A stretch of DNA of 64,000 bases from Squalus acanthias (taxonomy: Eukaryota). Where the stretch lies: assembly GCA_030390025.1 (NCBI GenBank), contig JASTWF010000321.1, forward strand, positions 372,001 to 436,000, read 5' to 3'. Numbering within the stretch: the stretch's first letter is position 1; the number at the start of each line of letters is the position of its first letter. Positions 3,798-43,600 of the stretch are shown here, one piece after another. Made by a program: the position numbers and the translations under genes. The notes under the pieces were generated by a model. It had not been told where the DNA came from. It saw only the letters and a program-made list of their open reading frames with translations, and ran no database searches.

Positions 3798-4039
3798 GGG
3801 AGGGAAAATGCTAGAATCTATTATTAAGGACGTAGTAATGCAGGGCACTTAGAAAATAGTAATATGATTGGGCAGAGTCAACATGGTTTTTGAGATGCTC
3901 CTTAAAACCTACATCATCTGTCCTTATATCTCCTCATGTGACTCGGTGCCACATTTTGTTTGATAACACTCCTGTGAAGCAAATTGGATCATTTTACTAT
4001 GTTAAAGGCACTATATAAATGCAAGTTGTTGTTGCTTTA

Positions 4040-4322
4040 GTGGTGTTGGTTGAGAGATTAACATTGGCCGGGATACCGTGAGAGCTCCCCTGCTCTTTTT
4101 CGAATAGTGCCATGGGATCTTTTACATCCACCTGAGAGGGGAGATGAGGAGTTGGTTTAACGTCTCATCTGAAAGACGGCACCTTTAACAGTGTAGCACT
4201 CCCTCAGTACTGCACTGGAGTGTCAGCCTGAATTACATGCTCAACTCTCTGGAAGGGAATGTGGACCCACGATCTTCTGACTCAGAGGTGAGAGTGTTAC
4301 CAACTGAGCTACAGCTGACACA
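4040..4322 (-). mobile_element. tRNA-derived SINE (SacSINE1/DeuSINE-like), 5' part; paralogous copies at 1-95 and 36910-37192
   Basis: Reverse strand begins with the tRNA-like head (GTGTCAGCTGTAGCTCAGTTGG...GGTCC) and matches the full copy at 9352-9812. Confidence 0.7.
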
Positions 4323-4730
4323 TGGTTCTGGAGTTAGGTTCTGGAATACCACACTTGCCCTTGGTTTAATGTGTAATATATGTGGGCAGAACAAACGAAG
4401 GACAGAGACAGGATGAATTGTTAGTCCATGTGCTTGTTTACGAGGCCAGAGTGAACTGAGCATGCTCATACTAAACCATGTGACAAACCATGCTGAAGAC
4501 TTGTGCTCCAGAACTAGCCGCGCCTCTAGCCAAGCTGTTCCAGTATAGCTACAACACTGGCATCTATGTGAAAAATTTCCAAGGTATGTCCTGTCCCCAA
4601 AAAAAAGGACAAATCCAACCCAGCCAACTTTTTTAAAAATTCATTCATGGGATGTGGGCGTCGCTGGCAAGGCCAGCATTTATTGCCCATCCCTTACTCA
4701 CCAATAACCTGCTCATCAATGCTCAGTTTA

Positions 4731-5111
4731 GGTGTACAAAATTATGAGGGGCATAGATAGGGTGGATAGAAAGGAACTTTTCCCCTTAGTAGAGGGGTCA
4801 ATAACCAGGGGGCATAGTTTCAAGGTAAGGGGCAGGAGGTTTAGAGGGGATTTGAGGAAAAACTTTTTCACCCAGAGGGTGGTTGGAATCTGGAACTCAG
4901 TGACTGAAAGGGTGGTAGAAGCAGGAACCCTCACAACATTCAAGAAGCATTTAGATGAGCACTTGAAACGCTATAGCATACAAGGCTACGGACCAAGTGC
5001 TGGAAAATGGGATTAGAATAGACAGGGCTTGATGGCCGGCACAGACACGATGGGCCGAAGGGTCTCTTTCTGTGCTGTATAACTTTATGACTCTATGACT
5101 CTATGATTCTA
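4731..5111 (+). mobile_element. 5'-truncated CR1 3' end with (CTATGACT)n tail
   Basis: YKIMRGIDRVD...RKNFFTQRVVGIWNS; TTTAGGT flanks both sides (4727-4733, 5112-5118); same family as 55827-56438. Confidence 0.9.
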
Positions 5112-16652: not shown

Positions 16653-18323
16653 TGTAGAATTCGCAATATTATCGCGATTTTATATAATAAGGAGGAGACA
16701 CATAGTTTCGTACAAACAGCTTTATTTCAGCAGAATGCTGTCAGGTTGTCAAAGTGGACAGAAGCATACCTGTAAAATGGCCGCCACGCCTCGTGGCAGA
16801 ACGTTCTAGACTTTCCGATAAGCAGACAAGATGGCGTTCCAATAAACATTTGTGCGAGATCGGACGAGACTCAGCACATTTGAGATAATTCACAAGACAT
16901 AATGGGTTTGCATTTTACACATAAATACTGGAATCGGTCTCCCAGGTGCGAATAAGGGCTATTGTACCAAGCGATCAAGAACCCATCCAAAGACATTAAT
17001 ATGCAAAATCCCCACGACTCTACGATGAGAGAGCCGTTTGCGGGTAGTTACAGAAAGCATTTGGAAGCCCCAAAACCCCTCCAGGGAGACTACTAGCCGG
17101 TTCCACAATGGGAGAAGTATTAACGGGTACTCAGACAGTTACAAGTATCACCGAAACCCATTAAAGACGGAGATCACCCTATACAAGAAGTTTGAGCGCC
17201 AAAACCCTGACAAAAGATAGACATTAAGATTGGGCGGGAAAAGAGGAATTGCAGCACTATAACTGTAAGGTACAACCGTCCATCTGCCTCTTGCCGCTTG
17301 CTCTTGACTTTTGGATCCTGACTCTTGCTGCTCGACTTGCTAGAAGACTTTTGAACTTTCTGATCCGCCAGGATCAACCTCGTGGCTTGCCGCGAAGATC
17401 TGTGGAGAACTGGGCTGTGAAGCCTTGAAACGGGCACACCATCCCGAGAAGTCGGTAAACGGTGTTGGAACCGAAGGCCCGAGATGAGATGAGATGAGAT
17501 GAGATGAGATGAGAAGAGAAGAAGACGACCATACGTATCGCCACGGTCAGTAAGCCCCGACCGCGCCTGTAGGTCGAATAAACACTTTTCTTGCCCAGGA
17601 AGACTATTCTTTGAGTTTTACAAACTGGCGTGAGGGCACAGGAAGACCATTCTTCGAGTTTTATCGCATCGGTGCGAGGGCACAGGAAGACTATTTTTCG
17701 AGTCGTGTCGGAACTCCGAGGACAACACAGATCTTCATGACAGCAGACGGTCCAGCCTGCTAGCCGGAGCAGAAACGAGTAAACAAGTGGGGTACAGAGA
17801 CCCCTGATCAACACGTGGGTGGTCAGGTGCTGCGGTAAAAACATCCGAGCAGAGTTTCGTAATTCTCCGAGTTATCACGAGTGGTGAGCATGAGTCTCGA
17901 TCCTACAAATCTAGTTTAGGACAGGTATTGATAGGGGAGGGTTTAAGTTTTAAGGATAATTGTAATGTGTGTCCCCTTTTACCTTTTACGATGTGTCGTG
18001 CGCTCCTCGTTTCCCTAAAATTAGTTACATAACTGCGTGTAAGATTGTACTGTCATTAATCTGTGCTTATGACATGTATTTCGTAATCTTGAATAATATG
18101 CAATAAAGATTTTCCATTTCACACTATTCAACCGGGTCTACCTGAGTTTTCTCATCATTATTGCTCTCGCACCTAAGTCCAGTGTCAGAACCGTAAGGGC
18201 GAGTGGGTCGAACCACTCACAGGTGCTTATTGCAACAAGGCTGGCCGGAGACCAGAGCAAGCAATAGTATTAGGCAACGAAGGCCTAACCCCGCACAAGC
18301 ACCACGAACCGTAACCCCTTACA
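16653..18323 (+). repeat. 5' LTR (1671 bp)
   Basis: Starts TGTAGAATTCGC, ends CCCCTTACA; homologous to 24339-28522 and, inverted, to 25481-27118; internal (GAGAT)n near 17480; AATAAA at 18102. Confidence 0.92.
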
Positions 18324-18328
18324 GAAAA

Positions 18329-18346
18329 TGGCGACCGCGGCAGGAC
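18329..18346 (+). promoter_or_regulatory. Primer-binding site, tRNA-Arg(UCG)
   Basis: TGGCGACCGCGGCAGGAC is the reverse complement of the vertebrate tRNA-Arg(UCG) 3' end GTCCTGCCGCGGTCG-CCA as I recall it; 5 nt after the LTR. Confidence 0.88.
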
Positions 18347-18381
18347 ATTGACAGCGAGAGAATAATGTGTTAGACCCTGGT

Positions 18382-20133
18382 ATGAATGGGCGAAATGTCA
18401 TGGAAGAGAGAATAGCAGATTATGTGTTTGGAAAAGTGAATTTGACTAAGAAATGGATAAGTGACCTGCTGGTTGATAAGCGTCCACTAGAGGCAGCCGA
18501 GAGGTGGACAGATAGCAAGGAACATAAAAAGGCAGTGGAGAAAGCGGTCTGGCTGATGTGCTATAAAAGATAAGTCCAAATTTCGGACCAGGTCATCTTA
18601 GCACAGGCAGCTCAGATCAAGAGTTTAGATGTGGAAATGGACGAGAAGGTCGCGGGGGGGCAGCAGCTCATCACGACTTTAAATGCGTTGCATCAAGAAC
18701 GCCAGTTAGTCGCCAACCACCATGAGGCAAAAATAGATTACCTCGAGTGCCAGGTCACTGAGGCAAAGTTAAATGAGGGCAGATTAAAGGAACGATGTGC
18801 CCGCCTAGCTGCCCAAATAAAAGTCCAGGAAGAGAGCTTAACGGGGGTTAGGGCGGCATATAAGATGGCCCTCGAGGATAAATTTCAGGGGGCCGATCAC
18901 AGCGTCTGCCAAAAAGAGATAGGGAACCTTAAAAAGGCCTTGAAGAAAGCGCACGGCATGGTGTGCCTTATCAGCCCGTCAGCACACCAGCCGCTAGTGG
19001 ATGAGGGATTTCAGAAATCCCCACCGAACAAAGCAGAGGAAGTATTAGCCACTGTGCCCTCCACGCCACCCAGCTATTCGGCAACCTGGGTGAGGGAGGA
19101 AGTGGTAGAAGTAGAGAAAGAGCCCACTGAGGTAGAAGTGAAGCCGGGACCGTTGTGTCCGGTCACGGGTATCAAGAGGGGCCCGAACAGAGACGGTGGG
19201 GCACAGGGGGATCTCCTCAACCAGCTTGTGTTGCCTCACAGCTCACACCAGCTGAGGGTTATGATCAGTCATGTACGGAAGCTGGCCGAGTCAGACGACC
19301 CTTCCGTACATTTCAGGGAAGTAGAGCAAACCGCAGCCATTAACGGCTGCGACGATGGGGAAAAAGCAAAAATGCTGTTATTCTCATTAGACAGCTCGAT
19401 CCTTCAGTGTCTCTCAGACGAGAGCAAGAGGGGAACTAATACCTATGGGGAGCTAAGAGATGAGGTCCTAGAAGTGTTGGGAATGGACGATGAAGGTCCG
19501 TTCGTTCGATTGGGACGAACAGTGCAGATGGAGGGAGAACCCCCGAAGGTTTTCGCCGACAGGCTGTGGCCAGTATACCAGCGTAGCTGCCCAGGCGCGC
19601 CAGCGCGTCACCGCATAGACGGTGTCGGTTTAACTCATTGGCTCAGGTGTATAGTAGCCAACAGTTTGCCAGCCGTCAGGGAGCAGGCCAAAGCATGGTT
19701 TGATCCCACTAACCCCGCCACTACAGAGGAGTCGGTCCTAAATCGACTCACGGTAGGGTACCGTAATACCAGGAGTACGGGAGCACGTCCCCTTAAGGGA
19801 AAGGTGCATGAGGCACGACCCGCAGCCCCGGCTCAAAAGGAGTGGCATCAGGAGGGTAACCGCGCCCCGCAGGCCAGTAATGCTTGTTACGGGTGTGGGA
19901 AGACAGGGCATTGGCGCAAGAACTGCAGGAACCCTTGGAAGGAGTCCAGGGATAAAAATCCCGCAGTCCGAGCCCAGGCGCCTATCTCCGATAGGGGAGC
20001 TAGTGCACCCATCCATCCCGATGCGATCGAATCAGTGTTGGGAGCCATGCGCACCCTCATGATTTCGCATGGAAGGGTGGCAGTTGCTACCGGCCCCACA
20101 GATGCCGCAGCCCCGTCCAACAGTACCCAATGA
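18382..20133 (+). pseudogene. gag: gag (~583 codons) with one premature TAA at 18571-18573
   Basis: ORFs 18367-18573 and 18631-20133 share a frame with a single stop between them; N-terminal coiled coil, MHR-like QMEGEPPKVFADRL (19525-19566), zinc knuckle CYGCGKTGHWRKNC (19885-19926). Confidence 0.85.
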
Positions 20134-21243
20134 CTAGAGCCCACGCAGCCTGCCTACCTGTGTCCTTTTAAAAGACACACACAGGAGGGGGTCTCTGGTA
20201 GGGAGGCCAGGTTAGAAGAGCAGGCCTTGCGGGAGGAGAACGCCCGTTTAATCGGGAAAGTAGATGGGCTGGAAGGGCAGCTTAGAGAGCAGGCCCTGCG
20301 GGAGGAGAACGCCCGCTTAATGGGAAAGTTAGACGTGCTCATGCTAGAAGCACAGCTTAGAGAGATAAAAGCAGCCTACAAGGTAGCCAGAAGCAGGGAT
20401 TTAAATCAGTGCAAACTGTATAAGCCGGGTGCACAAGGGCCAACCACAGGGGCCAAACCTGCGAGTGGGGACTCGCAGCCCCAGGTAGGGCCACAGGGCA
20501 CACAGGCAGGCAAAGCAGCTTGCATCAGGGGAGAGGACATCCTAGAAAAATGTGAGATATTTTATTGGGGTTGGGAGACAGATGAGGAAGAGTTCGAGGA
20601 GCTCGACGAAGATAGTGACACTAGCGAGGAGGAGCTGGAATCGGAGGACGAAAGGGTCGCCCCCGATTCAGGTATAGGGGAGACAGGGGCTGCAGATAGA
20701 GATCCACAAAGGGTGGAGGCCGAAGCTGCAGGTCCCGAACGCAGGGGGGCGGAGCTAGAGGAGGCGGAGCCAGCTGCTGTGGTGGGACCACAGGGCGTGG
20801 TGATGGAAGCCTCAGAGCCCGAGCCGCCCGCCTTGAACGTCTTGCCCTCGAGGGAGGTAGGGACTGCGAGTGAAGGGCCGCCTACTGGGCCAAGTAGGGC
20901 GGTGCCACAAGCTGCAGATCCCGAGTTCAGGGAGGCGGAGTCAGGGGAGGCGGAGCCAGCGACTGTGGTGGGACCACGGGTCGCCACGCTGGAAGTCTCG
21001 AAACCCGGTCCGTCAGTCCTGGAGTTCCTGCCCCCGGTAGTTCCCCGTAGGTCAAGTCGGAAACCCCAGCCCAGAAGGATATGGGTAAGTCCCCCGTATG
21101 TCCCCAGGCGTAAGTTCAAGGTCAAGGCAGCTCAGGGAGATCCCAGTCCCAGCGCAGCAGTGACAGGCTGCGGCAGATCAAAGGGAGGGGTCAATGCCCT
21201 CCCACCGTTGGGAGAAGCCTGCGGCAGCAACCGCAGAATTTGA
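20134..21243 (+). CDS. ORF X: in-frame gag read-through extension (369 aa; coiled coil, acidic tract, Pro/Ala/Glu repeats, basic tail), function unknown
   Basis: Open from the codon after gag TGA to 21243 in the gag frame; no protease/RT/RNase H/IN motifs. Confidence 0.65.
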   Translation, partial: LEPTQPAYLCPFKRHTQEGVSGREARLEEQALREENARLIGKVDGLEGQLREQALREENARLMGKLDVLMLEAQLREIKAAYKVARSRDLNQCKLYKPGAQGPTTGAKPASGDSQPQVGPQGTQAGKAACIRGEDILEKCEIFYWGWETDEEEFEELDEDSDTSEEELESEDERVAPDSGIGETGAADRDPQRVEAEAAGPERRGAELEEAEPAAVVGPQGVVMEASEPEPPALNVLPSREVGTASEGPPTGPSRAVPQAADPEFREAESGEAEPATVVGPRVATLEVSKPGPSVLEFLPPVVPRRSSRKPQPRRIWVSPPYVPRRKFKVKAAQGDPSPSAAVTGCGRSKGGVNALPPLGEACGSNRRI

Positions 21244-21540
21244 GTAGGCCGCCCTGGGAACAGGCGGCACTGTACAGTTATTAAGAAGAGTGATATGTTT
21301 AGGATGAGTTTATAAGTTTGAGTTTATAGTTTTAAATCAGGTTAAGTCGGTAGTTTAATTTTGTTAACAGAAAAAGGTAAAATGATGGGAGTTTTAGAGA
21401 TAGGAATAGTTAAAGTCTATCCAGCGCACATGTCTTCTTACGTGAGGCGAGGTCAGGGGACCCGCTCACCCTTCACAAAAGCCAGAGACTCTTGGGAGGC
21501 TGGCTACCTCATTCTATCTGATCACAGGAACCAAGGAAGG

Positions 21541-23892
21541 ATGGAACGAATTCTAGTGGTGCTCACGGCAATCGGATGTGGACTGGCCTATCGAGGCCGC
21601 ACCAAGGACGTCGTGGTGTTTGGATGCTCCGGGGACACGGCCCCCATCGCGGTGGATGGGACCGGAAGGCGAGAGGCTGAGGAGACCGCCACTTATTTCC
21701 ACAAGGGAAGGTGGCCAGGATGGCTGGGAACGAATTCAACTGAGTATTCCAGTACATCGGGTTTTGCCTACCAAGAGACTTCTTTAATGTGCCCCAAAGT
21801 GAGGATCATCGCACCCAGAGGCAGCGTCACCGTCGGCAAACGGATTTGTTTGACTTGTAGTGGGAATGTCCCATTGAGCCGATGGTGGTGGCTGCGAAAG
21901 CTGAGTAAAAACATGAGGAACTCTTCAGTCGAGTGGGAGCGACTGGGTAATAATACCCATCGGACAATTACGGGGACAAACGGACAAGTGAGAGTCTGTT
22001 GGGACAAATGGTGGGAACCGGATGAGGGAATTTATGTATGTATGTGGGGATCAAAGCACGTTTGCCCCAAAGGCATCTCCATATTTTTCATCAATCAATG
22101 GCAGGATAACGGACAGGGGATGAGGTGGGATGCGAGCACCAGGGGATGCGGAGCTCCATACTCTCCGATCCCGGTAAATGCCACTGAACTCATTACGCGC
22201 CCACGCAAAGCCCCGCCCACGATTCCGGTGGTTCTAGCTAAGGAAGAAGGGTGCCCTAAAACCAGTAAGGGACCCGGGAATGGTTTGGTACTGGTCCCCA
22301 CAGACCAGATACTATTTCAGGGGGTACATTACGCGGTGGCCTCGGTGATTTTAAATCTCACCGAGGTGCGGTTACCAGAGTGGTGCCCCAAAAAGACGGA
22401 ACAGTTATATCAGGTCCTGTTGACCAAGATGTTTAGGCAATTTTATGAGTTCGATTTCGCGGAAATTGATAAAACAAGTTTGTACACCGCACCACATGAA
22501 GTTTTGGGTCAGGTGGGGAGGCAAAGAAGGGGTGTTGTGAACGACATGTTCACTGCTTTCAATACAGGTACATCTGTGGTCAACGCTCTAGACAGCGTGG
22601 AGCTGCAGACCCAGATTAATGGTTTAAAAACACAATTAAAAAGCATTCTCACAGATGAAAATAAGGTGGTTGGGTCTGGGTTACACGAGGACCAGGCCAT
22701 GACTCTCCATTTAAAAGAAATAATATCTGAACTAGAGAAACATGCGCGTACGGTAAACGCCCTGATCAGGGAAGATCGGAATGCGTCCGATCAGGCTGCG
22801 CAGAACGATGTGTGCGTGCTTTACGGGGCGTGGTTACTGGGCGAGGGCCGCAGTAATTTGGAGGATTTAAAACAAGGTTTGGTCCCGTCCTGGATAAGTA
22901 ACAAACACCTGCAGGCGCTCCACCCTTTTCAGAACGCTTTAAGCCCGTGCCAGCTCAGACTAGCTTCAGAAGCATACCCAGTCCCCGTGGACTGCGGACG
23001 ATCAAACCATACCATCATGGGTATAGTATTACGTATGCCGGTTTTGGGCGACACAGCAAAGCCCGCCCCGGTGTATCGGGTAGAGAACATTGGTGTCATT
23101 CAGGGGGGAGCCCACATTCGCTATGCAGCGGTTCCACCTTACGTCATCCGCTGGGAGCAAACGATGACAGGTACAGATCTCTCTGGTTGTCGTGGCCGGG
23201 GAGCCCACATAATACTGTGTCCCCAGCACTTGAATGCCTTTTTAACACCGCAGTGCGGGTTCAGAACGGCTGGCGCCAAGCCCATGAATTGCACCATGGA
23301 GGCAATGGCGCAAGATCATGTGCCTCCGCAGGTAGCATACATCGGGGGTGGAACATATTGTGTTACCACTGCAGCGCAACACTACCAGCATGGAAACCGT
23401 AGCCGGTGTCCGGTGAGTGACAGCAGTTTCTGTTTTAAACCCAGGGCGGAAGCTCAAGTAGCACAACAGCGAATTGTCCCGATCCCTGAACCATCCACTG
23501 TTCATCTCACAGTAAAGGAGAATTTTACCGACTTGCAGCGATTCGTCGCGCATTTCGGATACCTCATTCCCCCTCTCCCTGAACACCTCACCAAACTTTT
23601 GAAAGCCGTCGCGGTATCGCAAAAACATTTTTACACACTAGAGCAAAAGACTGTCGAGATAGGGACAGAAATTCTGGACATAGTAATTCCACCATGGTGG
23701 GATCTGTTCGCCAACATTGAAGTCCCTTCCTGGATCAGAATAACCTCCCACATTTTAGTTGTATGCCAAGTGTTTATTGTGATATACTTATTGGTTGTGC
23801 ATTGTAAGAGAGGCAAACGCCTCACCAAGAACGAAAACATGGGAGAGTGGCGAGAACGTTACGTGTGCATGCACGATGAAAGCACCGCGTAA
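21541..23892 (+). CDS. env: Envelope glycoprotein, 783 aa: signal peptide, Ig-like domain, F-type class I fusion protein, TM
   Basis: MERILVVLTAIGCGLA signal; ICLTC..WWW..DEGIYVC; RQRR|GVVNDMFTAFNTGTSVVNALD (22519-22530); heptad repeat; Cys-rich region; TM ILVVCQVFIVIYLLVV; splice acceptor ..tctgatcacag| at 21527. Confidence 0.85.
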   Translation: MERILVVLTAIGCGLAYRGRTKDVVVFGCSGDTAPIAVDGTGRREAEETATYFHKGRWPGWLGTNSTEYSSTSGFAYQETSLMCPKVRIIAPRGSVTVGKRICLTCSGNVPLSRWWWLRKLSKNMRNSSVEWERLGNNTHRTITGTNGQVRVCWDKWWEPDEGIYVCMWGSKHVCPKGISIFFINQWQDNGQGMRWDASTRGCGAPYSPIPVNATELITRPRKAPPTIPVVLAKEEGCPKTSKGPGNGLVLVPTDQILFQGVHYAVASVILNLTEVRLPEWCPKKTEQLYQVLLTKMFRQFYEFDFAEIDKTSLYTAPHEVLGQVGRQRRGVVNDMFTAFNTGTSVVNALDSVELQTQINGLKTQLKSILTDENKVVGSGLHEDQAMTLHLKEIISELEKHARTVNALIREDRNASDQAAQNDVCVLYGAWLLGEGRSNLEDLKQGLVPSWISNKHLQALHPFQNALSPCQLRLASEAYPVPVDCGRSNHTIMGIVLRMPVLGDTAKPAPVYRVENIGVIQGGAHIRYAAVPPYVIRWEQTMTGTDLSGCRGRGAHIILCPQHLNAFLTPQCGFRTAGAKPMNCTMEAMAQDHVPPQVAYIGGGTYCVTTAAQHYQHGNRSRCPVSDSSFCFKPRAEAQVAQQRIVPIPEPSTVHLTVKENFTDLQRFVAHFGYLIPPLPEHLTKLLKAVAVSQKHFYTLEQKTVEIGTEILDIVIPPWWDLFANIEVPSWIRITSHILVVCQVFIVIYLLVVHCKRGKRLTKNENMGEWRERYVCMHDESTA

Positions 23893-24326
23893 ATAGATAA
23901 AATGGTGTCACTCCAGTTTTTCCACGTGCGCCTCAGAATTGTTGTAATTGATCGTGATTTTTCTCAGAAACTGTAATTAAGTTTGGAACTCTACATGTTT
24001 AAGAGTTGGTTTTGATTATTTTCATTTGGTGTTGTTGAATATGATTGTTTGGTTGTTTTTTGTTTTCTTTTTCCTTGAATAAAAAAATATGCATATGCAG
24101 GTGGTGCGAGAGGCATCGGCCTGGTTACACCTGGAAGGAAATACACGCGGTGTAAGTTAAAGGCAAATGCTGCCTACGGTGTTATAAGAATGTAATTTTC
24201 CTGGGAAATAAGGACGACACGGAGACCCTAGATAGTTTTAAGTTATGGGAATTTTTGGATATGGAGAATCGAGATAATATTGCTCACCACAATGTTTTTG
24301 ATACAATAAGCGGAGTTATTCGCATC

Positions 24327-24338
24327 AACAGGAGGGAC
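24327..24338 (+). promoter_or_regulatory. Polypurine tract
   Basis: AACAGGAGGGAC directly before the 3' LTR TG. Confidence 0.7.
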
Positions 24339-24506
24339 TGTAGAATTCGCAAAATTATCGCGATTTTATAAAAATAAGAAGGAGACATAAAGTTTCGTAT
24401 AAACAGCTTTATTTCAGCAGAATGCTGTCAGGTTTCAAAACGGACACAAACAGCCTGTAAAATGGCCGCCACGCCTCGTGGCAGAAAGTTCTAGACTTTC
24501 AGTAGG

Positions 24507-25413
24507 CATAGAAACATAGAAACATAGAAAATAGGTACAGGAGTAGACCATTCGGTCCTTCGAGCCTGCACCGCCATTCAATGCGTTCATGGCTGAACAT
24601 GCTACCTCAGTACCCCATTCCTGCTTTCTCGCCATACCCCTTGATCCCCTTAGTTGTGAGTATTATATCTAACTCCCTTTTGAATATATTTAGCGAACTG
24701 GCCTCAACAACCTTCTGTGGAAGAGAATTCCATAGATTCACCACTCTCTGGGTGAAGAAGTTCCTCCTCAGCTCAGTCCTAAATGGCTTCCCCTTAATCC
24801 TTAGACTGTGACCCCTGGTTCTAGTTTTCCCTACCATTGGGAACATTCTGCCCGCATCTAATTTGTCTAAACCAGTCAGGATTTTAAATGTCTCTATAAG
24901 ATCCCCCCTCATTCTTCTGAACTCCAGAGGATACAAGTTCAGTTGACCCAATCTTTCTTGATATGTCAGTCCGGCCATCCCAGGAATCAATCTAGTGAAC
25001 CTTCGCTGCACTCCCTCAATAGCAAGAATGTCCTTCCTTAAGTTAGGAGACCAAAACTGCGCACAATACTCCAGGTGTGGCCTCACCAAGGCCCTGTACA
25101 ACTGTAGCATCACCTCCCTACTCCTGTACTCAAATCCCCTTGCTATGAAGGCCATCATTCCGTTTGCTTTCTTGACTGCCTGCTGCACTTGCATTCCCAC
25201 CTTCAGTGACTGATGTACCATGACGCCCAGGTCTCGTTGCACGTCCCCTTTCCCTAATCTGCCACCATTCAGGTAATAGTCCGCCTCTCTATTTTTACCA
25301 CCAAAGTGGATAACCTCACATTTATCCACATTGTACTTCATCTGCCATACATTTGCCCATTCACTCAACCTGTCCAAGTCACTCTGTAGCCTCCTAGCAT
25401 CCTCCTCATTGTT
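24507..25413 (-). mobile_element. 5'-truncated CR1 inserted in the 3' LTR
   Basis: Uninterrupted RT C-terminal ORF (LQSDLDRLSEW...KGYGEKAGMGY) and (TTTCTATG)n tail. Confidence 0.92.
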
Positions 25414-25480
25414 CAGACAAGATGGCGTTCCAATAAGCATTTGTGCAAGATCGAAAAGATCCAACATGATGAGATAATGA

Positions 25481-27118
25481 TGTAAGGGATTCTGACCCTG
25501 CGTGTCTCGCAGCCTGTGAGATTCACGCGGCTCTGTGCAGCCTGTATGTCAGTGCGGGTCTAGGCCTTGTTGCCTGTTCTGGTCTCCAGCCAGTCTGGGA
25601 ACACTAGACACACCTGTGAGTGGTTCGAATCACTCTCCCTTACGGTTCTCGACACTGGACTTAGATGCGAGAGCAGTAATGGAGATGAAACTCATGTAGA
25701 CTCGGTTTGAATGGTACGAAATGGAAAATCTTTATTGCATGATACTTAAGATTATGAAATACATGTCATAAGCACAGATTAATGACAGTACAATCTTACA
25801 AACAGTTATATAGTCGATCTTAGGGAAACGAGGAACGAACGGCACATAGTAAATAGGGGCACACATTACAAATATCCTTAATCCTTAAACCCTCCCCTAT
25901 CAATATCTATCCTAAACTAGATTCGTAGGATTTCGAGACTCATGCTCACCACTCGTGATAACTCGGAGAAATTCCGAATAGCTGATCGGATGTTTTTCAC
26001 CGCAGCACCCACGTGTCAGTCAGGAGATCTCCTGGTCCCACTTGTTTACTTGCTTCTGCTGCTCCGGCTAGCAGGCTGGAACGTCTGCTGTGATGAAGAC
26101 CTGTGTTGGTTGGTTTAACAGGTACTTTCGAGCACAGTCCAGTTATATCATCGATGCGATATGTTTCGTTACAAGTTCGAAGAAGTCTTCCTGGCAAGGA
26201 AAACTTGGCTAATCGACCTACAGGCGCGGTCGGGATTTACTGACCGTGGCGATGGATATGGTCTTCCTCTCTTCTCATCTCATCTCATCTCATCTCATCT
26301 CATCTCGGGCCTTTGGTTCCGCTGCCAGTTACCAACATAGGTCTTCGTTACGCGACACGAGGTAGATCCGAACGGATCAGAAAGTTCAACAGTCCTTTTC
26401 AAAAGAGACAACAGGCAAGCAGGAGCGAGCCCAACTACGAGTACACAGGAGCAGCCACGAGGTTACGAATCGATCGGATAAGAGAAAGATGGACGGTTTG
26501 GAGCCTGCAATTATAGTGCAAAAATCTTCCGTTTCCCGCCCAACTATAATGTCCATTCTTTTGTTTAAGGTCTGGCGCTCAAAATGTCTTGTATGGGTGA
26601 TCTCCGTTCTTAATGGGTTTCGGGGCTACTCGTAAATGTCTGAGTACCTGTTAATATTTCTCCCATTGTTAAATCGGTCGGCGTTCTCCCTGGAGGGGTT
26701 TTGGGGCTTCCAAGTGTCCTGTATAACTACCTGCTAACGGCTCTCTCATCGTAGAGTCGTTGGGATTTTACATATTAATGTCTTTTGGATGGGCCCTTGA
26801 TTACTCGGTACAATGGCTTTCCTTTGTACCTGGGAGACCGATTTCAGTATTTATGTGTATACTGCAAACCCATAATGTCTCGTGTATTATCTTCACTGTG
26901 CTGAATCTTAATCGATCTTGCACAAATGTTTATTGGAACGCCATCTTGTCTGCCTGTTGAAAAGTCTAGAATGTTCTGTCACGAGGTGCGGCGGCCATTT
27001 TACAGGCTGCTTGTGTCCACTTTAAACCTGTCAGCATTCTGCTGAAATAAAAGCTGTTTGAACGAAACTCTGTGTTTTCTCCTTATTAATAAAATCGCGA
27101 TATATTGCGAATTCTACA
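25481..27118 (-). mobile_element. Solo LTR of a related subfamily, inverted inside the 3' LTR
   Basis: Reverse strand TGTAGAATTCGC...CCCTTACA, 1638 bp; flanked by ATGA/GTGA (4-bp TSD with one mismatch). Confidence 0.9.
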
Positions 27119-28522
27119 GTGACAAGACGCGATGGGTTTACATTTTAAACATGAATACTGAAATCGGTCTCCCAGGTGCAAACAAGGGCTATTGTACTGA
27201 GCGATCAAGGACCCATCCAAAGACATTAATATGCAAAATCCCCACGACTCTACGATGAGAGAGCCGTTTGCGGGTACTTACAGCAAGCATTTGGAAGCCC
27301 CAAAACCCCTCCAGGGAGACTACTAGCCGGTTCCACAATGGGAGAAATATTAACGGGTACTCAGACAGTTACAAGTGTCACCGAAACCCATTAAAGACTG
27401 AGATCACCCTATACAAGAAGTTTGAGCGCCAAAACCCTGACAAAAGATAGACATTAAGATTGGGCGGGAAAAGAGGAATTACAGCACTATAACTGTAAGG
27501 TACAACCGTCCATCTTTCTCTTGCTGCTTTGACTCGCTGGAAGGCTGCTGAACTTTTATTCTCTTGCCTGACGGCTCTGCACTCTGATCCGCTAGGATCA
27601 ACCTCGTGGCTTGCCGCGAAGATCTGTGGAGAACTGGGCTGTGAGGCCTGGAAGCGGGCGCACCATCCCGAGGGGTCGGTAAACGGAGTTGGAACCGAAG
27701 GCCCGAGAGGAGATGAGATGAGATGAGATGAGATGAGAAGAGAAGAAGACGACAATACGTATCGCCACGGTCAGTAAGCCCCGACCGCGCCTGTAAGTCG
27801 AATAAACACTTCTTTGAATTCTATCGGCTACTCCACAACTGGCCCAGGAAGACCCTTCTTCAAGTTCTATCGAATCGGTGTAGGGCACAGGAAGACTTTT
27901 TTTTGAGTAGTATCAGAACTCCAAGGGCAACACAGATCTTCATGACAGCAGACGGTCCAGCCAGCTAGCCGGAGCAGAAACGAGTAAACAAGTGGGGTAC
28001 AGAGACCCCTGATCAACACGTGGGTGGTCAGGTGCTGCGGTAAAAACATCCGAGCAGAGTTTCGGAATTCTCCGAGTTATCACGAGTGGTGAGCATGAGT
28101 CTCGATCCTACAAATCTAGATTAGGACAGGTATTGATAGGGGAGGGTTTAAGTTTTAAGGATAATTATAATGTGTGTCCCCTTTTACGATGTGTCGTGCG
28201 CTCCTCGTTTCCCTAAAATTAGTTTCATAACTGTGTGTAAGATTGTACTGTCATTAATCTGTGCTTATGACATGTATCTCGTAATCTTGAATAATATGCA
28301 ATAAAGATTTTCCATTTCGCACTATTCAACCGGGTCTGCCTGAGTTTTCTCTCCATTACTGCTCTCGCACCTAAGTCCAGTGTCAGAACCGTAAGGGCGA
28401 GTGGGTCGAACCACTCACACGTGTCTAGTGTTACCAGGCTGGCTGGAGACCAGAACAGGCAACAAGGCCTAACCTCGCACTAGCACCCAGGCTAAGCACA
28501 GAGCCACAGGTCACCCCTTACA

Positions 28523-30520: not shown

Positions 30521-30832
30521 CTATCTTCCTTTCAATCTGCTTGGTTTCCAGTCAGGTTTCAGTGGCAAGTAACATTCGTGCCACACAAGTGCCAGGCAAT
30601 GACCATCTCCAAGAGAAAGTCTAACCACCACCCCTTGACATTCAATGGCATTACCATCGTCAAATCCCCCACCAACAACATCCTGGGGGTCACCATTGAC
30701 CAGAAACTTAACTGGACCAGCCACATAAATACTGTGGCAACAAGAGCGGGTCAGAGGCTGGGTATTCTGTGGCGAGTGTCTCAATAAATAAACTAAAACT
30801 AGAAAATTAATAAGTAATATAAGGGTTAAGTC

Positions 30833-31780
30833 ATGGCAGTAGAGCTCGGACCTGTGTCATGCTCCTCCTGTAACATGTGGGAAATCATGGACGCTTCCTG
30901 TGTCCCTGACAACCATGTGTGCGGGAAGTGTGTCCAGCTGCAGCTCATGTGGGACCGCATGACGGCCCTTGAGCTGCGGATGGACTCACTTTGGAGCATC
31001 CACGATTCTGAGAGGGTTGTGAATAGCACATTTAGTGAGTTGGTCACACCGCAGGTTAAGGCCAGAGTAGATAGTACATGGGTGACCAAAAGGCAGAGCA
31101 AGGGCAGGAAGGTAGTGCAGGAATCCCCTGGGGTTGTCTCCCTCAGCAACAGGTTCACCGCCTTAGGTGCTGTTGTCGGGGGGGATGACTCATCGGGGGA
31201 AGGCACCAGCAGCCAGGCTCATGGCACCATGACTGGCTCTGTTGCAAAGAAGGGAGGGAAAAAGAGTGGCAGGGCTATAGTAATAGGGGATTTGATTGTA
31301 AGGGGAATAGATAGGAGTTTCTGTGGTCGCGACCGAGACTCCAGGATGGTAATTTGCCTCCCTGGTGCAAGGGTCAAGGATGTCTCGGCGCGGGTGCAGA
31401 ACATTCTGGAGGGGGAGGGGGAACAGCCAGTTGTCGTGATACATGTTGGTACCAACGACGTAGCTAAAAAAAGGGAAGAGGTCCTACAAGTAGAATTTAG
31501 GGAGTTAGGAGCCAAGCTAAAAAGTAGGACCTCGAAGGTAGTAATCTCTGGATTACTACCAGTGCCACGTGCTAGTAAGAGTACAGAGAACAGGATAGTT
31601 AGGCTAAATACGTGGCTTGAGCAGTGGTGTAAGAGGGAGGGTTTTAAATTTTTGAGGCATTGGGACCAGTTTTGTGGTAGGTGTGACCTATACAAAAGGG
31701 ACGGTCTACACCTGTGCAAAGGTGGAACTGATGTTCTCGGGGTAAATTTTGATAAAGCAGTTCGGGAGCATTTAAACTAG
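30833..31780 (+). CDS. CR1 ORF1p (zinc finger, coiled coil, SGNH/GDSL esterase-like domain), 315 aa
   Basis: CSSC..CGKC; VIGD.IVR, CLPGARV, HVGTND and DGLHL blocks. Confidence 0.92.
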   Translation: MAVELGPVSCSSCNMWEIMDASCVPDNHVCGKCVQLQLMWDRMTALELRMDSLWSIHDSERVVNSTFSELVTPQVKARVDSTWVTKRQSKGRKVVQESPGVVSLSNRFTALGAVVGGDDSSGEGTSSQAHGTMTGSVAKKGGKKSGRAIVIGDLIVRGIDRSFCGRDRDSRMVICLPGARVKDVSARVQNILEGEGEQPVVVIHVGTNDVAKKREEVLQVEFRELGAKLKSRTSKVVISGLLPVPRASKSTENRIVRLNTWLEQWCKREGFKFLRHWDQFCGRCDLYKRDGLHLCKGGTDVLGVNFDKAVREHLN

Positions 31781-34722
31781 TATGGCAGGGGGCTAGAAAC
31801 CCATGTAGTGAAATAGAGGAAAGTGAAAGGCAGACAGAAATAAATGGTAAAAAGGAGAGGAACAAAAAACAAAGGGCCAAACTAATTCATAAAAAATGTG
31901 AGCATAAAAAAAGCCTGAGGGTTTTATACCTTAATGCGAGAAGCATCAGGAACAAGGTAGATGAATTAGCTGTGGAAATAGAGGTTAATAATTATGATCT
32001 AATTGGGATTACGGAAACATGGTTGCAGGGTGAGCAGGGCTGGGAGCTTAACATACAGGGGTATTCAGTATTTAGGAAGGATCGACAAAAAAGAAAGGGA
32101 GGAGGGGTAGCATTGCTGGTAAAAGAGGGGATAAATGCAATTGAAAGGAAGGATATTAACTCAGTTAATACAGAATCTATATGGGTGGAGCTAAGAAATA
32201 GCGAGGGGCGAAAAACATTAATAGGAGTGGTATATAGGCCTCCAAATAGTAAAATAGAGGTTGGGGAGGGCATCACGAGGGAAATTAGAGAAGCGTGCAA
32301 TAAGAGCACAGCTGTCATCATAGGTGACTTTAACTTACATATAGATTGGACTAGCCTAATCAGTAAAAATAATGAGGAGGAGGAATTCCTTGAGTGTTTA
32401 AGGGATGGTTATCTGGATCAATATGTCGAGGAACCAACTCGGGAACAGGCTATATTGGACTGGGTACTGTGCAATGAGAAGGGACTAATTAGTAATCTTG
32501 TTGTACGGGGACCCTTGGGTCAGAGCGATCATAACATGATCGATTTCTCACTCGAAATGGAGAGCGAAGAAATTGACTCAGAGACTCAGGTCCTGAATTT
32601 AAACAAGGGGAATTATGATGCCATTAGACGGGAACTGAGTAGGTCTGATTGGACAACGTTCCTGGGAGGACTGGAGGTAGATAAACAATGGCAAGCATTT
32701 AAAGATAGAATGACAAAATTGCAAAAATTGTTTATACCAATCTGGCATAAAAGGAAATCTAAAAAGGTGACTCAACCGTGGATAACAGGGGAAATTAGAG
32801 ACAGCATAAAATCCAAAGATAGGGCGTATAAAATAGCCAAAAAACGCGCCAGAGCGGAAGATTGGGAACAGTTTAAGATAGAGCAAAGGAGGGCAAAGGG
32901 CTTAATCAAGAAGGGCAAAATAGCTTACGAAAGCAAGCTGGCGGAAAATATAAAAACTAACTCCAAAAGCTTTTATAAGTATATCAAGAGGAAAAGACTG
33001 GTGAAAACCAAAGTTGGTCCATTGCAGTCAGATACGGGGGAATATATAATGGGAAATAAGGAAATGGCAGACCAACTAAATGCATACTTTGGGTCAGTCT
33101 TTACGAAGGAAGACACAAAAAACCTCCCTGGGATATCGGGAAAAATAGGGACATTGGCAAAGGAGGAACTGACGCAAATCAATATCTCTAAGGATATGGT
33201 GTTAAGGAAGCTAAAGGGATTGAAGGCGGACAAATCCCCAGGGCCTGATAACATGCATCCTAGGGTACTGAAGGAGGTGGCCCTAGAGATAGCGGATGCA
33301 CTAAGCATGATTTTTCAGAATTCATTAGACTCGGGAACAGTGCCCATGGATTGGAGGGTAGCTAACGTTACCCCACTATTCAAAAAGGGGGGTAGGGAAA
33401 AAGCAGGTAATTACAGACCTGTAAGCCTTACATCAGTTGTGGGCAAAATGCTGGAGTCCATCATTAAGGATGAAATAGCCGAGCACTTAGCAAATGGGGA
33501 CAGGATAGGACAGAGTCAACATGGATTTACAAAGGGTAAATCGTGCTTGACTAATCTATTGGAATTTTTTGAGGGAGTAACTGGTAAAATAGATGGGGGA
33601 GAGCCAGTAGATGTGGTGTACCTGGACTTCCAAAAGGCCTTCGATAAGGTCCCACATAAAAGATTAGCATGGAAAATTGAAGCTCATGGGATAAAGGGGA
33701 AAGTATTGACGTGGATAGAGAACTGGCTGTCAGATAGAAAACAGAGAGTTGGAATAAACGGCTCATTTTCTGAATGGCAGGCAGTAACAAGTGGGGTACC
33801 ACAGGGATCTGTCCTGGGTCCCCAGCTGTTCACAATTTATATTAATGACCTGGATCAGGGAGTCGAATGCAGCATTTCCAAATTTGCAGACGACACTAAA
33901 CTAGGAGGGGGGGTGGGCTCAGAGGAGGAGACCAGGAAGCTCCAGAGCGATTTGGACAGACTGGGTGATTGGGCGGATAAATGGCAGATGCACTATAATG
34001 TGGACAAGTGCGAAGTTATCCACCTTGGGTGCAGGAACGGGAGGGCAAATTATTATTTAAATGGCAATAAATTGGGAGAGGGGGAAGTACAGAGAGACCT
34101 GGGTGTTCTTGTACACCAGTCACTGAAGGCGAGCATGCAGGTGCAACAGGCGGTCAAGAAGGCAAACGGTATGCTGGCCTTCATAGCAAAAGGGTTGGAA
34201 TACAGGAACAGGGATACCTTGCTGCAGCTGTACAGGGCACTGGTGAGACCACACCTCGAGTACTGTGTACAGTTTTGGTCGCCTCATCTGAGGAAAGATG
34301 TTCTTGCCATGGAGGGGGTGCAGCGGCGATTCACCAGGCTGATACCAGGAATGGCGGGATTGACCTATGAGGAGAGACTATGTAGTTTAGGGATGTACAC
34401 ACTGGAGTTTAGAAGATTGAGAGGGGACCTCATAGAAGTGTATAAAATTCTGACAGGTCTAGACAGATTAGATGCAGAAGGAATGTTTCCCTTGGCGGGT
34501 GAGAACAGAACTAGAGGACATAATTTAAGGATAAGGGCTAAACCATTTAGGACAGAAATGAGGGGGAATTTCTTCACTCAGAGAGTGGTGAACCTGTGGA
34601 ACTCATTGCCACAGAGGGCAGTGTACGCCAGCTCATTAAATATATTTAAGAGGGAATTAGATATATTTCTACAGGCAAAAGGGGTTAAGGGTTACGGAGA
34701 GAAGGCGGGGACAGGATACTGA
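31756..34722 (+). CDS. CR1 ORF2p (APE endonuclease plus reverse transcriptase)
   Basis: Stop-to-stop frame open from 31756; YLNARS, ITETW, YRPP, GDFN, SDH; QHGF, LDFQKAFD, GVPQGSVLGP, FADD. Confidence 0.95.
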   Translation, partial: SSSGAFKLVWQGARNPCSEIEESERQTEINGKKERNKKQRAKLIHKKCEHKKSLRVLYLNARSIRNKVDELAVEIEVNNYDLIGITETWLQGEQGWELNIQGYSVFRKDRQKRKGGGVALLVKEGINAIERKDINSVNTESIWVELRNSEGRKTLIGVVYRPPNSKIEVGEGITREIREACNKSTAVIIGDFNLHIDWTSLISKNNEEEEFLECLRDGYLDQYVEEPTREQAILDWVLCNEKGLISNLVVRGPLGQSDHNMIDFSLEMESEEIDSETQVLNLNKGNYDAIRRELSRSDWTTFLGGLEVDKQWQAFKDRMTKLQKLFIPIWHKRKSKKVTQPWITGEIRDSIKSKDRAYKIAKKRARAEDWEQFKIEQRRAKGLIKKGKIAYESKLAENIKTNSKSFYKYIKRKRLVKTKVGPLQSDTGEYIMGNKEMADQLNAYFGSVFTKEDTKNLPGISGKIGTLAKEELTQINISKDMVLRKLKGLKADKSPGPDNMHPRVLKEVALEIADALSMIFQNSLDSGTVPMDWRVANVTPLFKKGGREKAGNYRPVSLTSVVGKMLESIIKDEIAEHLANGDRIGQSQHGFTKGKSCLTNLLEFFEGVTGKIDGGEPVDVVYLDFQKAFDKVPHKRLAWKIEAHGIKGKVLTWIENWLSDRKQRVGINGSFSEWQAVTSGVPQGSVLGPQLFTIYINDLDQGVECSISKFADDTKLGGGVGSEEETRKLQSDLDRLGDWADKWQMHYNVDKCEVIHLGCRNGRANYYLNGNKLGEGEVQRDLGVLVHQSLKASMQVQQAVKKANGMLAFIAKGLEYRNRDTLLQLYRALVRPHLEYCVQFWSPHLRKDVLAMEGVQRRFTRLIPGMAGLTYEERLCSLGMYTLEFRRLRGDLIEVYKILTGLDRLDAEGMFPLAGENRTRGHNLRIRAKPFRTEMRGNFFTQRVVNLWNSLPQRAVYASSLNIFKRELDIFLQAKGVKGYGEKAGTGY

Positions 34723-40632: not shown

Positions 40633-43600
40633 TCTCCCCAGAGCCCCCTTTCCCCAGTCTCCCTCTCTCCCCGAGTCCCCATTCCCCAGTCTCCCTCTCT
40701 CCCCGAGCCCCCATTCCCCCTCTATCCCCGAGCCCCCATTTCCCAGTCTCCATCTCTCCCCGAGCCCCCATTCCCCAGTCTCCCTCTCTCCCCGAGCCCC
40801 CATTCCCCAGTCTCTCTCTCTCCCCGAGCCCCCATTCCCAGTCTCCCTCTCTCCCGAGCCCCCATTCCCCAGTCTCCCTCTCTCCCGAGCCCCATTCCCC
40901 AGTCTCTCTCTTTCTCCCCTGAGCCCCCATTCCCCAGTCTCCTCTATCTCCCCGAGCCCCCATTCCCAGTCTCCCTCTCTCCCCGAGCCCCCATTCCCCA
41001 GTCTCTCTCTCTCCCCGAGCCCCCAATCCCAGTCTCCTCTCTCCCACGAGCCCCCATTCCCCAGTCTCTCTCTCTTCCCCGAGCCCCCATTCCCCAGCTC
41101 TCCCTCTCTCCCCGAGCCCCCATTCCCCAGTCTCCCTCTCTCCCCGAGCCCCCATTCCCAGTCTCTCTCTCTCCCGAGCCCCATTCCCCAGTCTCCCTCT
41201 CTCCCCGAGCCCCCATTCCCCAGTCTCTCTCTCCCCGAGCCCCCATTCCCCAGTCTCCTCTCTCCCCTGAGCCCCCCATTCCCCAGTCTCCCTCTCTCCC
41301 CGAGCCCCCATTCCCAGTCTCTCCTCTCTCCCCGAGCCCCCATTCCCCAGTCTCCCTCTCTCCCCGAGCCCCCTATCTCCAGTCTACCTCTCTCCCCGAG
41401 CCCCCATTCTCCAGTCTCCCTCTCTCCCCGAGCCCCCATTCCCCAGTCTCCCTCTCTCCCCGAGCCCCCATTCTCCAGTCTCCCTCTCTCCCCGAGCCCC
41501 CATTCTCCAGTCTCCCTCTCTCCCCGAGCCCCCATTCCCCAGTCTCTCTCTCTCCCCCGAGCCCCCATTCCCCAGTCTCCCTCTCTCCCCGAGCCCCCAT
41601 TCCCAGTCTCTCTCTCTCTCCCCGAGCCCCCATTCTCCAGTCTCTCTCTCTCCCCGAGCCCCCATTCCCCAGTCTCCCTCTCTCCCCGAGCCCCCATTCT
41701 CCAGTCTCACTCTCTCCCCGAGCCCCCATTCCCCAGTCGCTCTCTCTCCCCGAGCCCCCATTCCCCAGTCTCCCTCTCTCCCCGAACCCCCATTCCCCAG
41801 TCTCCCTCTCTCCCCGAGCCCCCATTCCCCAGTCTCCCTCTCTCCCCGAGCCCCCATTTCCCAGTCTCTCCTCTCTCCCCGAGCCCCCCATTTCCCAGTC
41901 TCTCTCTTCCCGAGCCCCCATTCCCCGGTCTCACTCTCTCCCCGAGCTCCCATTCCCCAGTCTCCCTCTCTCCCCGAGCTCCATTCCCCAGTCTCCCTCT
42001 CTCCCCGAGCCCCCATTCCCCAGTCTCTCTCTCTCTCCCCGAGCCCCCATTCCCCAGTCTCTCTCTCCCCGAGCCCCCATTCCCAGTCTCCTCTCTATCC
42101 CCGAGCCCCCATTCCCCAGTCTCTCTCTCTCCCCCCGAGCCCCATTCCCCAGTCTCCCTCTCTCCCGAGCCCCATTCCCCAGTCTCCCTCTCTCCCCGAG
42201 CCCCCATTCCCCAGTCTCTCACTCTCCCCGAGCCCCCATTCCCCAGTCTCCCTCTCTCCCCGACCCCCATTCCCCAGTCTCCCTCTCTCCCCGAGCCCCC
42301 ATTCCCCAGTCTCCCTCTCTCCCGAGCCCCCATTTCCCAGTCTCACACTCTCTCCCCGAGCCCCCATTCCCCAGTCTCTCTCTTCCCCGAGCCCCCATTC
42401 CCCAGTCTCACTCTCTCCCCGAGCTCCCCATTCCCCAGTCTCCCTCTCTCCCCGAGCCCCCATTCCCCAGTCTCCCTCTCTCCCCGAGCCCCCATTCCCC
42501 AGTCTCTCTCTCTTCCCCGAGCCCCCATTCCCCAGTCTCTCTCTCCCCGAGCCCCCATTCCCCAGTCTCTCTCTCTCCCCGAGCCCCCATTCCCCAGTCT
42601 CTCTCTCTCCCCCGAGCCCCCATTCCCCAGTCTCCCTCTCTCCCCGAGCCCCCATTCCCCAGTCTCCCTCTCTCCCCGAGCCCCCATTCCCCAGTCTCTC
42701 ACTCTCCCCGAGCCCCCATTCCCCAGTCTCTCTCTCTCTCTCCCCGAGCCCCCATTCCCCATTCTCCCTCTCTCCCCGAGCCCGCATTCCCCAGTCTCTC
42801 TCTCTCCCCCGAGCCCCCATTCCCCAGTCTCCCTCTCTCCCCGAGTCCCCCATTCCCCAGTCTCCCTCTCTCCCCGAGCCCCCATTCCCCAGTCTCTCTC
42901 CCCCTGAGCCCCCATTCCCCAGTCTCCCTCTCTCCCCGAGTCCCCATTCCCCAGTCTCCCTCTCTCCCCGAGCCCCCATTCCCCAGTCTCCCTCTCTCCC
43001 CGAGTCCCCATTCCCCAGTCTCCCTCTCTCCCCGAGCCCCCATTCCCCCTCTATCCACGAGCTCCCATTCCCCAGTCTCCATCTCTCCCCGAGCCCCCAT
43101 TCCCCAGTCTCCCTCTCTCCCCGAACCCCCATTCCCCAGTCTCTCTCTCTCCCCGAGCCCCAATTCCCCAGTCTCCCTCTCTCCCCGAGCCCCCATTCCC
43201 CAGTCTCCCTCTCTCCCCGAGCCCCCATTCCCCAGTCTCTCTCTCTCCCCGAGCCCCAATTCCCCAGTCTCCCTCTCTCCCCGAGCCCCCATTCCCCAGT
43301 CTCCCTCTCTCCCCGAGCCCCCATTCCCCAGTCTCTCTCTCTCCCCCCGAGCCCCCATTCCCCAGTCTCTCTCTCTCCCGAGCCCCCATTCCCCAGTCTC
43401 TCTCTCTCCCCGAGCCCCCATTCCCCAGTCTCTCTCTCTCCCCGAGCCCCCATTCCCCAGTCTCTCTCTCTCCCCGAGCCCCCATTCCCCAGTCTCTCTC
43501 TCTCCCCGAGCCCCCATTCCCCAGTCTCCCTCTCTCCCCGAGCCCCCATTCCCCAGTCTCTCTCTCTCCCCCGAGCCCCCATTCCCCAGTCTCCCTCTCT

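Follow-up and report, generated by a model that had tools for sequence, protein, structure and literature searches.

A probable pol-deleted, trans-mobilised derivative of an abundant endogenous retrovirus family in a cartilaginous-fish-like genome

Endogenous retroviruses (ERVs) that lack pol and are mobilised in trans form a well-known kind of element. The one described here lies in a 64,000-nucleotide stretch of Squalus acanthias DNA (contig JASTWF010000321.1, positions 372,001 to 436,000, hereafter called the window), where it measures 9.2 kb and reads as a long terminal repeat (LTR), gag, an open reading frame called ORF X, env and a second LTR. Very probably it descends by deletion of pol from a young ERV family of class-I-like character and very high copy number, as a non-autonomous (“D-type”) element mobilised in trans, and the pol-less form has most likely spread by borrowing the enzymes of its full-length relatives. 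It is set apart from the known cases by gag and env frames that stay open in the defective form, by the host group, and by an Env protein that the sequence searches could assign to no class. The account is built on direct observations: the anatomy of the element, the homology between X and Pol, a breakpoint shared by the copies, their number, their target duplications, the selection acting on env, and an env tree in which copies with and without pol are intermixed.

A preliminary description, made from the letters of the window, had proposed a lineage of satellite retroviruses that supply capsid and envelope, borrow Pol from a helper, and carry a different protein in place of pol. One part of this proposal holds, as the element is multi-copy and a helper-dependent life cycle fits the data, while the other part, the exchange of pol for a different protein, does not stand.

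ORF X and the missing part of pol

Three stop-to-stop reading frames follow one another on the plus strand of the window: a gag-like frame (18574-20133), ORF X (20134-21243) and an env frame (21346-23892). The gag gene proper covers 583 codons (18382-20133), ends with a TGA at 20131-20133, and encodes one CCHC zinc knuckle (Pfam zf-CCHC, E 0.0015, the nucleocapsid matches being weak). As had been noticed, it is interrupted by a single premature stop, the TAA at 18571-18573; L031, another pol-less copy, has a glutamine codon there and an open gag of 583 codons. ORF X is open over 369 codons and continues directly behind the gag TGA in the same frame, and env, which starts with a methionine codon at 21541 and runs to 23892, is an intact gene for 783 amino acids. 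The enzymatic core is likewise absent, as first described: searches with protease, reverse transcriptase (RT), RNase H and integrase profiles gave no Pfam match in any of the three genes (gag, X and env), nor in 13 other reading frames taken from both strands.

What, then, is ORF X? Aligned with L032, a full-length copy of the same family, it falls into three parts. The first (20134-20165), in frame after the gag stop, encodes the 11 residues LEPTQPAYLCP, which are codons 1-11 of the L032 protease reading frame. The third (20402-21243) encodes the C-terminal tail of Pol, X residues 88-368 being identical to the last 281 amino acids of L032 Pol at 253 of 281 positions (90%), in a region that lies behind the SH3-like domain of integrase. 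Between them stands a 236-nt junction (20166-20401) with a 69-nt tandem duplication, whose coiled-coil-like peptide of about 78 residues is confined to pol-less copies. Homology to the full-length copies thus runs up to position 20165 and begins again at 20402, and the junction takes the place of 3.6 kb of pol. Because it consists of the start of pro and the tail of Pol around a short junction, ORF X is the scar of a pol deletion and not a foreign gene. The view that no remnant of pol is left is therefore mistaken, as both the C-terminus of Pol and the beginning of pro are present in X, and so is the view that another protein replaced pol with no deletion scar to be seen, since X itself is that scar.

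The tail is also only weakly constrained. Over 435 pairs, its ratio of nonsynonymous to synonymous substitution rates (dN/dS) is 0.62, against 0.70 and 0.84 in the two other frames, and it evolves in a nearly neutral manner, which goes against a functional replacement protein over most of X. In L032 Pol this acidic, proline-rich extension of 281 amino acids lies at about 4007-4848. In the window, a stretch of 141 nt is repeated within it (20710-20850 and 20896-21036, 74% identical). A derivation of the junction from the coiled coil of gag found no firm support: BLASTP gave an E value of 4e-4 for one pair, but in phmmer gag was only level with the best of 1000 shuffles.

Copies with and without pol

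Four copies were compared with the window as 10-kb stretches (L031 to L034), and comparisons over the full length cover few copies. L031 is colinear with the window, whereas in L032, L033 and L034 an additional 3.6 kb separates the counterparts of window positions 20165 and 20402. This segment encodes the domains RVP, RVT_1, RT_RNaseH_2, RNase_H, Integrase_H2C2 and rve as well as an SH3-like domain. One full-length copy could be followed from end to end (L033 joined to L035, on C17); it measures 12.7 kb and has the LTR ends, polypurine tract, gag and env of the pol-less form, with the primer binding site (PBS) of L031. The LTR ends TGTAGAATTC...CCCCTTACA, the PBS TGGCGACCACGAAGGGAC and the polypurine tract AACAGGAGGGAC are common to L031, to the pol-less copy L063 and to this full-length copy, while the window copy shares the LTR ends and the polypurine tract and has a PBS with four changes. 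A pol-encoding partner with the same LTR termini and PBS, for which the preliminary description had suggested a search, is thus present.

Such partners are numerous. All 150 scored matches to the core of the reverse transcriptase (170 amino acids) show 100% identity, and 59 of them, counted from the match table, lie in open frames of at least 1400 amino acids, so that potential helpers are plentiful. In the 3.7-Gb host genome, env has at least 53 scored matches with 96-100% amino-acid identity, and by our own count 31 of these contain no stop. For a vertebrate ERV that keeps env, the family in its full-length form gives the impression of extreme youth and of very high copy number. No description of it was found in the literature searched, whose coverage was limited and cannot show that none exists.

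The pol-less form is itself a multi-copy form. Out of 1455 first-look candidates, all 40 scored matches to the junction are 94-100% identical and lie at distinct places, which gives at least 40 junction-bearing loci; when 30 env loci were examined with their flanks, 11 proved to be pol-less and 19 to carry the integrase end. The structure is therefore not limited to one locus. All 11 pol-less copies have an identical 5′ breakpoint. The 3′ side of the junction varies among them, with one or two 69-nt units and with insertions or deletions (indels) of 3, 6 and 9 nt; L003 has a hybrid junction form, and the variant L030 retains the last ~70 amino acids of integrase, which points to a stepwise deletion of pol. 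ORF X is open in 8 of the 11 (344-423 amino acids), and in every copy it follows the gag TGA in frame.

Independent copies with their own target duplications, also proposed as a check, were found as well. L031 is bounded by a perfect 4-bp duplication (GGAA) and its two LTRs are 99.39% identical; L063 is bounded by another (AACT), in flanks unlike those of L031. The 5′ LTR of L063 (positions 840-2018 of that locus) is only ~1.18 kb long, and only the parts close to its two termini match the standard LTR. It has undergone an internal deletion or replacement, despite the perfect target duplication.

Selection on env is strong and purifying. Its dN/dS is 0.18 over the 30 loci (435 pairs) and 0.10 among seven copies picked by their junction DNA (21 pairs; 0.104 with the window included). 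None of the 30 loci has an indel behind the env start codon, and 25 of the 30 are free of internal stops. The dN/dS of gag, which the preliminary description had also suggested measuring, is 0.31-0.47 (3 pairs).

The env genes of the two forms do not make two groups. Pol-less copies do not gather in one part of the env tree but stand in between pol-bearing ones; eight changes of form are needed, at least four of them forced by starred branches. The pol-less copies show no clustering when compared with shuffled labels (126 of 500 shuffles were as low), and a single pol-less clade is rejected (approximately unbiased test, p-AU 8.5e-93). The pol-less lineage is not independent, since its env genes interleave with those of pol-bearing copies. 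Given a single shared breakpoint and an intermixed env tree, frequent recombination between the forms is the simplest reading, and recombination with the partner in turn lends indirect support to co-packaging.

These elements can be arranged into the following course of events. One ancestral internal deletion would have removed the protease from codon 12 onwards, the reverse transcriptase, RNase H and most or all of the integrase, sparing gag, the weakly constrained Pol tail, env and all terminal cis elements. The pol-less RNA, transcribed from its LTR, would be co-packaged with full-length (“P-type”) RNA in particles made from Gag, Gag-Pol and Env, and the enzymes of the helper would then reverse-transcribe and integrate it in trans, leaving a 4-bp target duplication. 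During reverse transcription, frequent recombination with helper genomes would draw gag and env of both forms from one gene pool, and spread presumably includes an Env-dependent, infectious step.

Several observations weigh against this account. Target duplications were verified in two pol-less copies only, L031 and L063, and the full-length copy on C17 has no clear one (GCAC on one side, AGAC on the other). The 11:19 ratio of D-type to P-type copies is rough, the sample being the 30 env loci closest to the window env. As these loci had been picked by protein similarity to the window, env was also examined in 10 pol-less copies picked by junction DNA, and it is fully open in only three of them. 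Of the others, one is open over the 2322 nt fetched, three have deletions of 1-2 nt, one contains a stop and a 1-nt deletion in addition to an insertion of 228 nt, one gives an env match that ends at nt 1484, and one has no env at the expected place. The junction raises further difficulties. Its peptide has no homolog among 1450 candidates, and longer proteins in a set of 5.8 billion gave no hit; it resembles gag or Pol no more closely than shuffled sequences do. Over 36 pairs from 9 copies (~70 codons), the dN/dS of the junction alone is 0.33 in the frame of X, while the two other frames give 0.67 and 2.9, and about six in seven of its indel variants stay in frame. Taken with an ORF X that is open in most copies, this hints at a possible role for the product of read-through from Gag into X, something that a purely passive scar would not lead one to expect.

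The same facts are what can be said for a satellite retrovirus lineage with its own capsid and envelope and a borrowed Pol, in which a different, functional protein X has replaced pol: a junction peptide with no relatives, its lower dN/dS in frame, indels that are mostly multiples of three, a frame always kept behind the gag TGA, and many copies with target duplications of their own. Yet 281 of the 369 residues of X are a Pol tail in near-neutral evolution, the first 11 are the start of pro, the integrase remnant of L030 indicates that pol was lost in steps, and env is held in common with the pol-bearing copies. The selection signal comes from nine related copies and about 70 codons, and a weak, position-consistent similarity between the junction DNA and the integrase linker (score 37, against a mean of 30 and a maximum of 40 for shuffles) hints at rearranged pol. 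Replacement is accordingly judged quite improbable. An adapted junction may also be imagined within a deletion derivative: the pol-less lineage might have evolved a read-through protein of its own, made of Gag, a new coiled-coil module and the Pol tail, which would stand in for Gag-Pol in particles and give the defective genome an advantage over its helpers in packaging or spread. This is unlikely.

Could segmental or tandem duplications of host DNA, and not reverse transcription and integration, have given rise to the many pol-less copies? Junction matches do occur in pairs on one contig (two each on C1725, C661, C16 and C4), and further LTR pieces flank the window locus, but the copies are spread over many chromosomes, L031 and L063 differ in both their 4-bp duplications and their flanks, and the close identity of the L031 LTR pair contrasts with differences of 3-6% between copies. 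In addition, env has a dS of 0.06-0.12 with a dN/dS of 0.1-0.18, so that the copies diverged under selection and not by decay after insertion; host duplication is left with a very small probability. A one-off deletion, rearrangement or assembly artefact at this locus alone would suit the irregular state of the window copy, with its LTRs of ~91% identity, its missing target duplication and its nested insertions. It is refuted by the recurrence of the junction on many contigs (40 of 40 scored places), by its presence in 11 of 30 env loci, and by the clean target duplications of L031 and L063. A public-run contig from another sample (X3, record 18), corresponding to window positions 20130-20394, spans the 5′ breakpoint too, and practically nothing is left to recommend an artefact. 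The trans-mobilised, pol-deleted derivative thus remains the favoured explanation.

The window copy and its surroundings

The window copy is a decayed member of its family, with a stop in gag, mismatched LTRs, no target duplication and two insertions nested in its 3′ LTR. Its 5′ LTR (16653-18323, plus strand, ~1.67 kb, TGTAG...CCCCTTACA) aligns colinearly with its counterparts in L031, L033/L035 and L063, and its start, read from the sequence, had been placed correctly at 16653. The polypurine tract, also rightly recognised (24327-24338, plus strand), abuts the 3′ LTR. The end of the element had been set at 24506; position 24503 is in reality the start of a nested insertion of a long interspersed nuclear element (LINE), and the true end of the 3′ LTR lies at 28522. 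This LTR is split into three plus-strand pieces: 24339-24502 (LTR positions 1-164), 25414-25480 (LTR positions about 171-238) and 27119-28522, the last of which ends with CCCCTTACA and is followed by ACAG. The first interruption (24503-25413, minus strand) is a 5′-truncated LINE fragment of 0.9 kb with an RT-like reading frame; it shares 75-84% identity with LINE copies elsewhere in the window. The second (25481-27118, minus strand) is an inverted solo LTR of 1.64 kb from a more distant subfamily (83-85% identity), flanked by ATGA and GTGA at a TTGA target. A DIRS-like or other inverted-repeat element was considered and rejected: the inverted copy at 25481-27118 is this nested solo LTR, clean copies of the family have direct LTRs, and the partner carries a DDE integrase.

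Compared piece by piece over the three parts of the 3′ LTR, the two LTRs of the window copy agree at 148 of 161, 55 of 66 and 1266 of 1388 positions, or ~91%, and the 4-bp flanks are unequal (AATG on the 5′ side, ACAG on the 3′ side). The third piece is closer to the LTRs of other copies, with ~96% identity to those of L031 and of the C17 copy and 98% to that of L034. Relative to other copies, the 5′ half of the element (LTR and gag) shows 91-93% identity and the 3′ half ~97%. As the LTRs of a fresh provirus are identical, the window copy is most likely a hybrid of two elements, formed by recombination or conversion after integration.

The PBS-like 18-mer that had been reported is indeed present (18329-18346, plus strand, after a 5-nt spacer behind the 5′ LTR), but four of its 18 positions deviate from the TGGCGACCACGAAGGGAC of L031, L063 and the C17 full-length copy. 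With a split 3′ LTR, LTRs that are not alike, unequal flanks and an altered PBS, the earlier statement that all cis signals are intact fails for this copy. The primer is presumably tRNA-Arg, an assignment not confirmed by tRNA search. The complementary tRNA 3′-end pattern (not followed by C) was found at 16 places, and ARAGORN called no tRNA in the 13 examined; two of the matches, when read in the sequence, are PBS-like sites of another repeat. The loci L054 and L056 on contig C2450 belong to a different repeat family, in which a reverse-oriented PBS-like site corresponds to the first 15 letters of the same tRNA 3′ end. This family has at least five copies on that contig.

Two other features of the window deserve mention. 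At 30830-34722 lies a LINE with an ORF1-like frame of 316 amino acids and an endonuclease/RT frame of 988 amino acids, both open. Many truncated relatives of it are scattered across the window, including the fragment within the 3′ LTR. A satellite of 7.7 kb (40633-48378) is made of ~240 copies of a 32-bp unit matching at 92%, and since it is free of stop codons it produces giant reading frames in all six frames.

Env, affiliation and significance

The Env protein has a signal-peptide-like start, 10 N-glycosylation sequons (N-x-S/T), an RQRR cleavage-like site and a C-terminal membrane anchor. Its membrane-anchored subunit is unusually long, with about 455 amino acids behind RQRR. Over its 783 residues there is no CX6CC motif and no CC, and neither a Pfam match nor a PDB sequence match was obtained. 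Just two sequence homologs were found, both of them partial annotated proteins, in a skate and a sawshark. One carries the label “Niban 1-like” and is probably a mis-annotated fusion. An AlphaFold2 model of the 400-residue ectodomain behind RQRR, made from a single sequence, was unusable (mean predicted local distance difference test score, pLDDT, of 36), and the ESM Atlas gave an unnamed chordate cluster at 0.84, under the trust level. The layout might resemble that of paramyxovirus-type F proteins or of the Env of “lokiretroviruses.” As judged by these searches, Env appears to lie outside every described class that they can recognise. No env splice joint was seen in four public runs, whose contigs are of uncertain kind and uninformative either way.

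Other parts of the family are easier to place. Compared with solved structures, its reverse transcriptase is closest to that of murine leukaemia virus (MLV) and xenotropic MLV-related virus (XMRV) (E 1e-60 to 1e-62), then to foamy virus RT (1e-54 to 1e-57). In L032, in the C17 copy and in the pol-less copies alike, gag ends in ...STQ, and a single stop separates it from LEPxQP... in the same frame. Because of the closest solved RT, the in-frame gag stop and the 4-bp duplication, the family looks class-I-like (gamma/epsilon). With the gamma- and epsilonretroviruses it shares the order LTR-gag-pol-env-LTR, gag and pro-pol in one frame with a single stop, and a 4-bp duplication. It departs from them in the long membrane subunit, in a long LTR (1.64 kb) and in the 281-residue tail after integrase, and from the gamma type in an Env with no CX6CC and no Pfam match, a TLV_coat-like transmembrane subunit not being seen.

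Defective ERVs with helpers are a familiar kind. The ETn/MusD, IAP I-delta-1, RecKoRV and HERV-K type pairs comprise derivatives, shaped by deletion or replacement, that exploit proteins made by full-length relatives, and IAP I-delta-1 encodes a fusion protein across its deletion. In these examples it is mostly env that has been lost and, to our knowledge, none comes from cartilaginous fishes. ETn with MusD, IAP I-delta-1 with IAP, RecKoRV with KoRV-A and HERV-K type 1 with type 2 are all cited as cases of trans-complementation in the relevant part of a study on bovine ERVs (Tang et al., 2024, PMC10924933).

The bovine family of that study, ERVK[2-1-LTR], offers the closest parallel. In the sections of the report that concern us here, its C-type and D-type elements form one clade with shared LTRs and flanking gag and env sequences and a differing central segment; the enzymes are encoded by one morph only, the numerous D-type elements are inferred to be complemented in trans, and recombination between the morphs is taken as a sign of co-packaging (PMC10924933). 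The present family resembles this pair in its two forms, its shared LTRs, gag and env, its enzymes confined to one form and its recombination. It differs in that the bovine D-type, as far as these sections describe it, has no intact reading frame, whereas here many pol-less copies have open gag and env, with env under purifying selection. Moreover, the bovine system belongs to ERVK, while ours is class-I-like and sits in a cartilaginous-fish-like host. The chicken element EAV-HP provides another comparison: in the part of the source consulted, it is an LTR-gag-env-LTR provirus from which the whole of pol is missing, with several independent insertions (PMC3554524). According to the same part, it is about 4.2 kb long and lacks portions of gag and env, as against 9.2 kb, complete gag and env and a Pol tail in the present element (PMC3554524).

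With the exchange of pol for another gene set aside, what remains is a clear natural pair of defective and helper ERVs in a cartilaginous-fish-like genome. If an adapted Gag-X protein were real after all, the pol-less lineage could be called a “parasite of the parasite”: it would possess an adapted gene and would also feed working Gag and Env into the shared particle pool. The family is in any case a candidate system for studying how defective genomes influence an ERV invasion outside mammals, both while it rises and while it declines, what makes an ERV in high copy number retain env, and what the nature of this unclassified Env may be.

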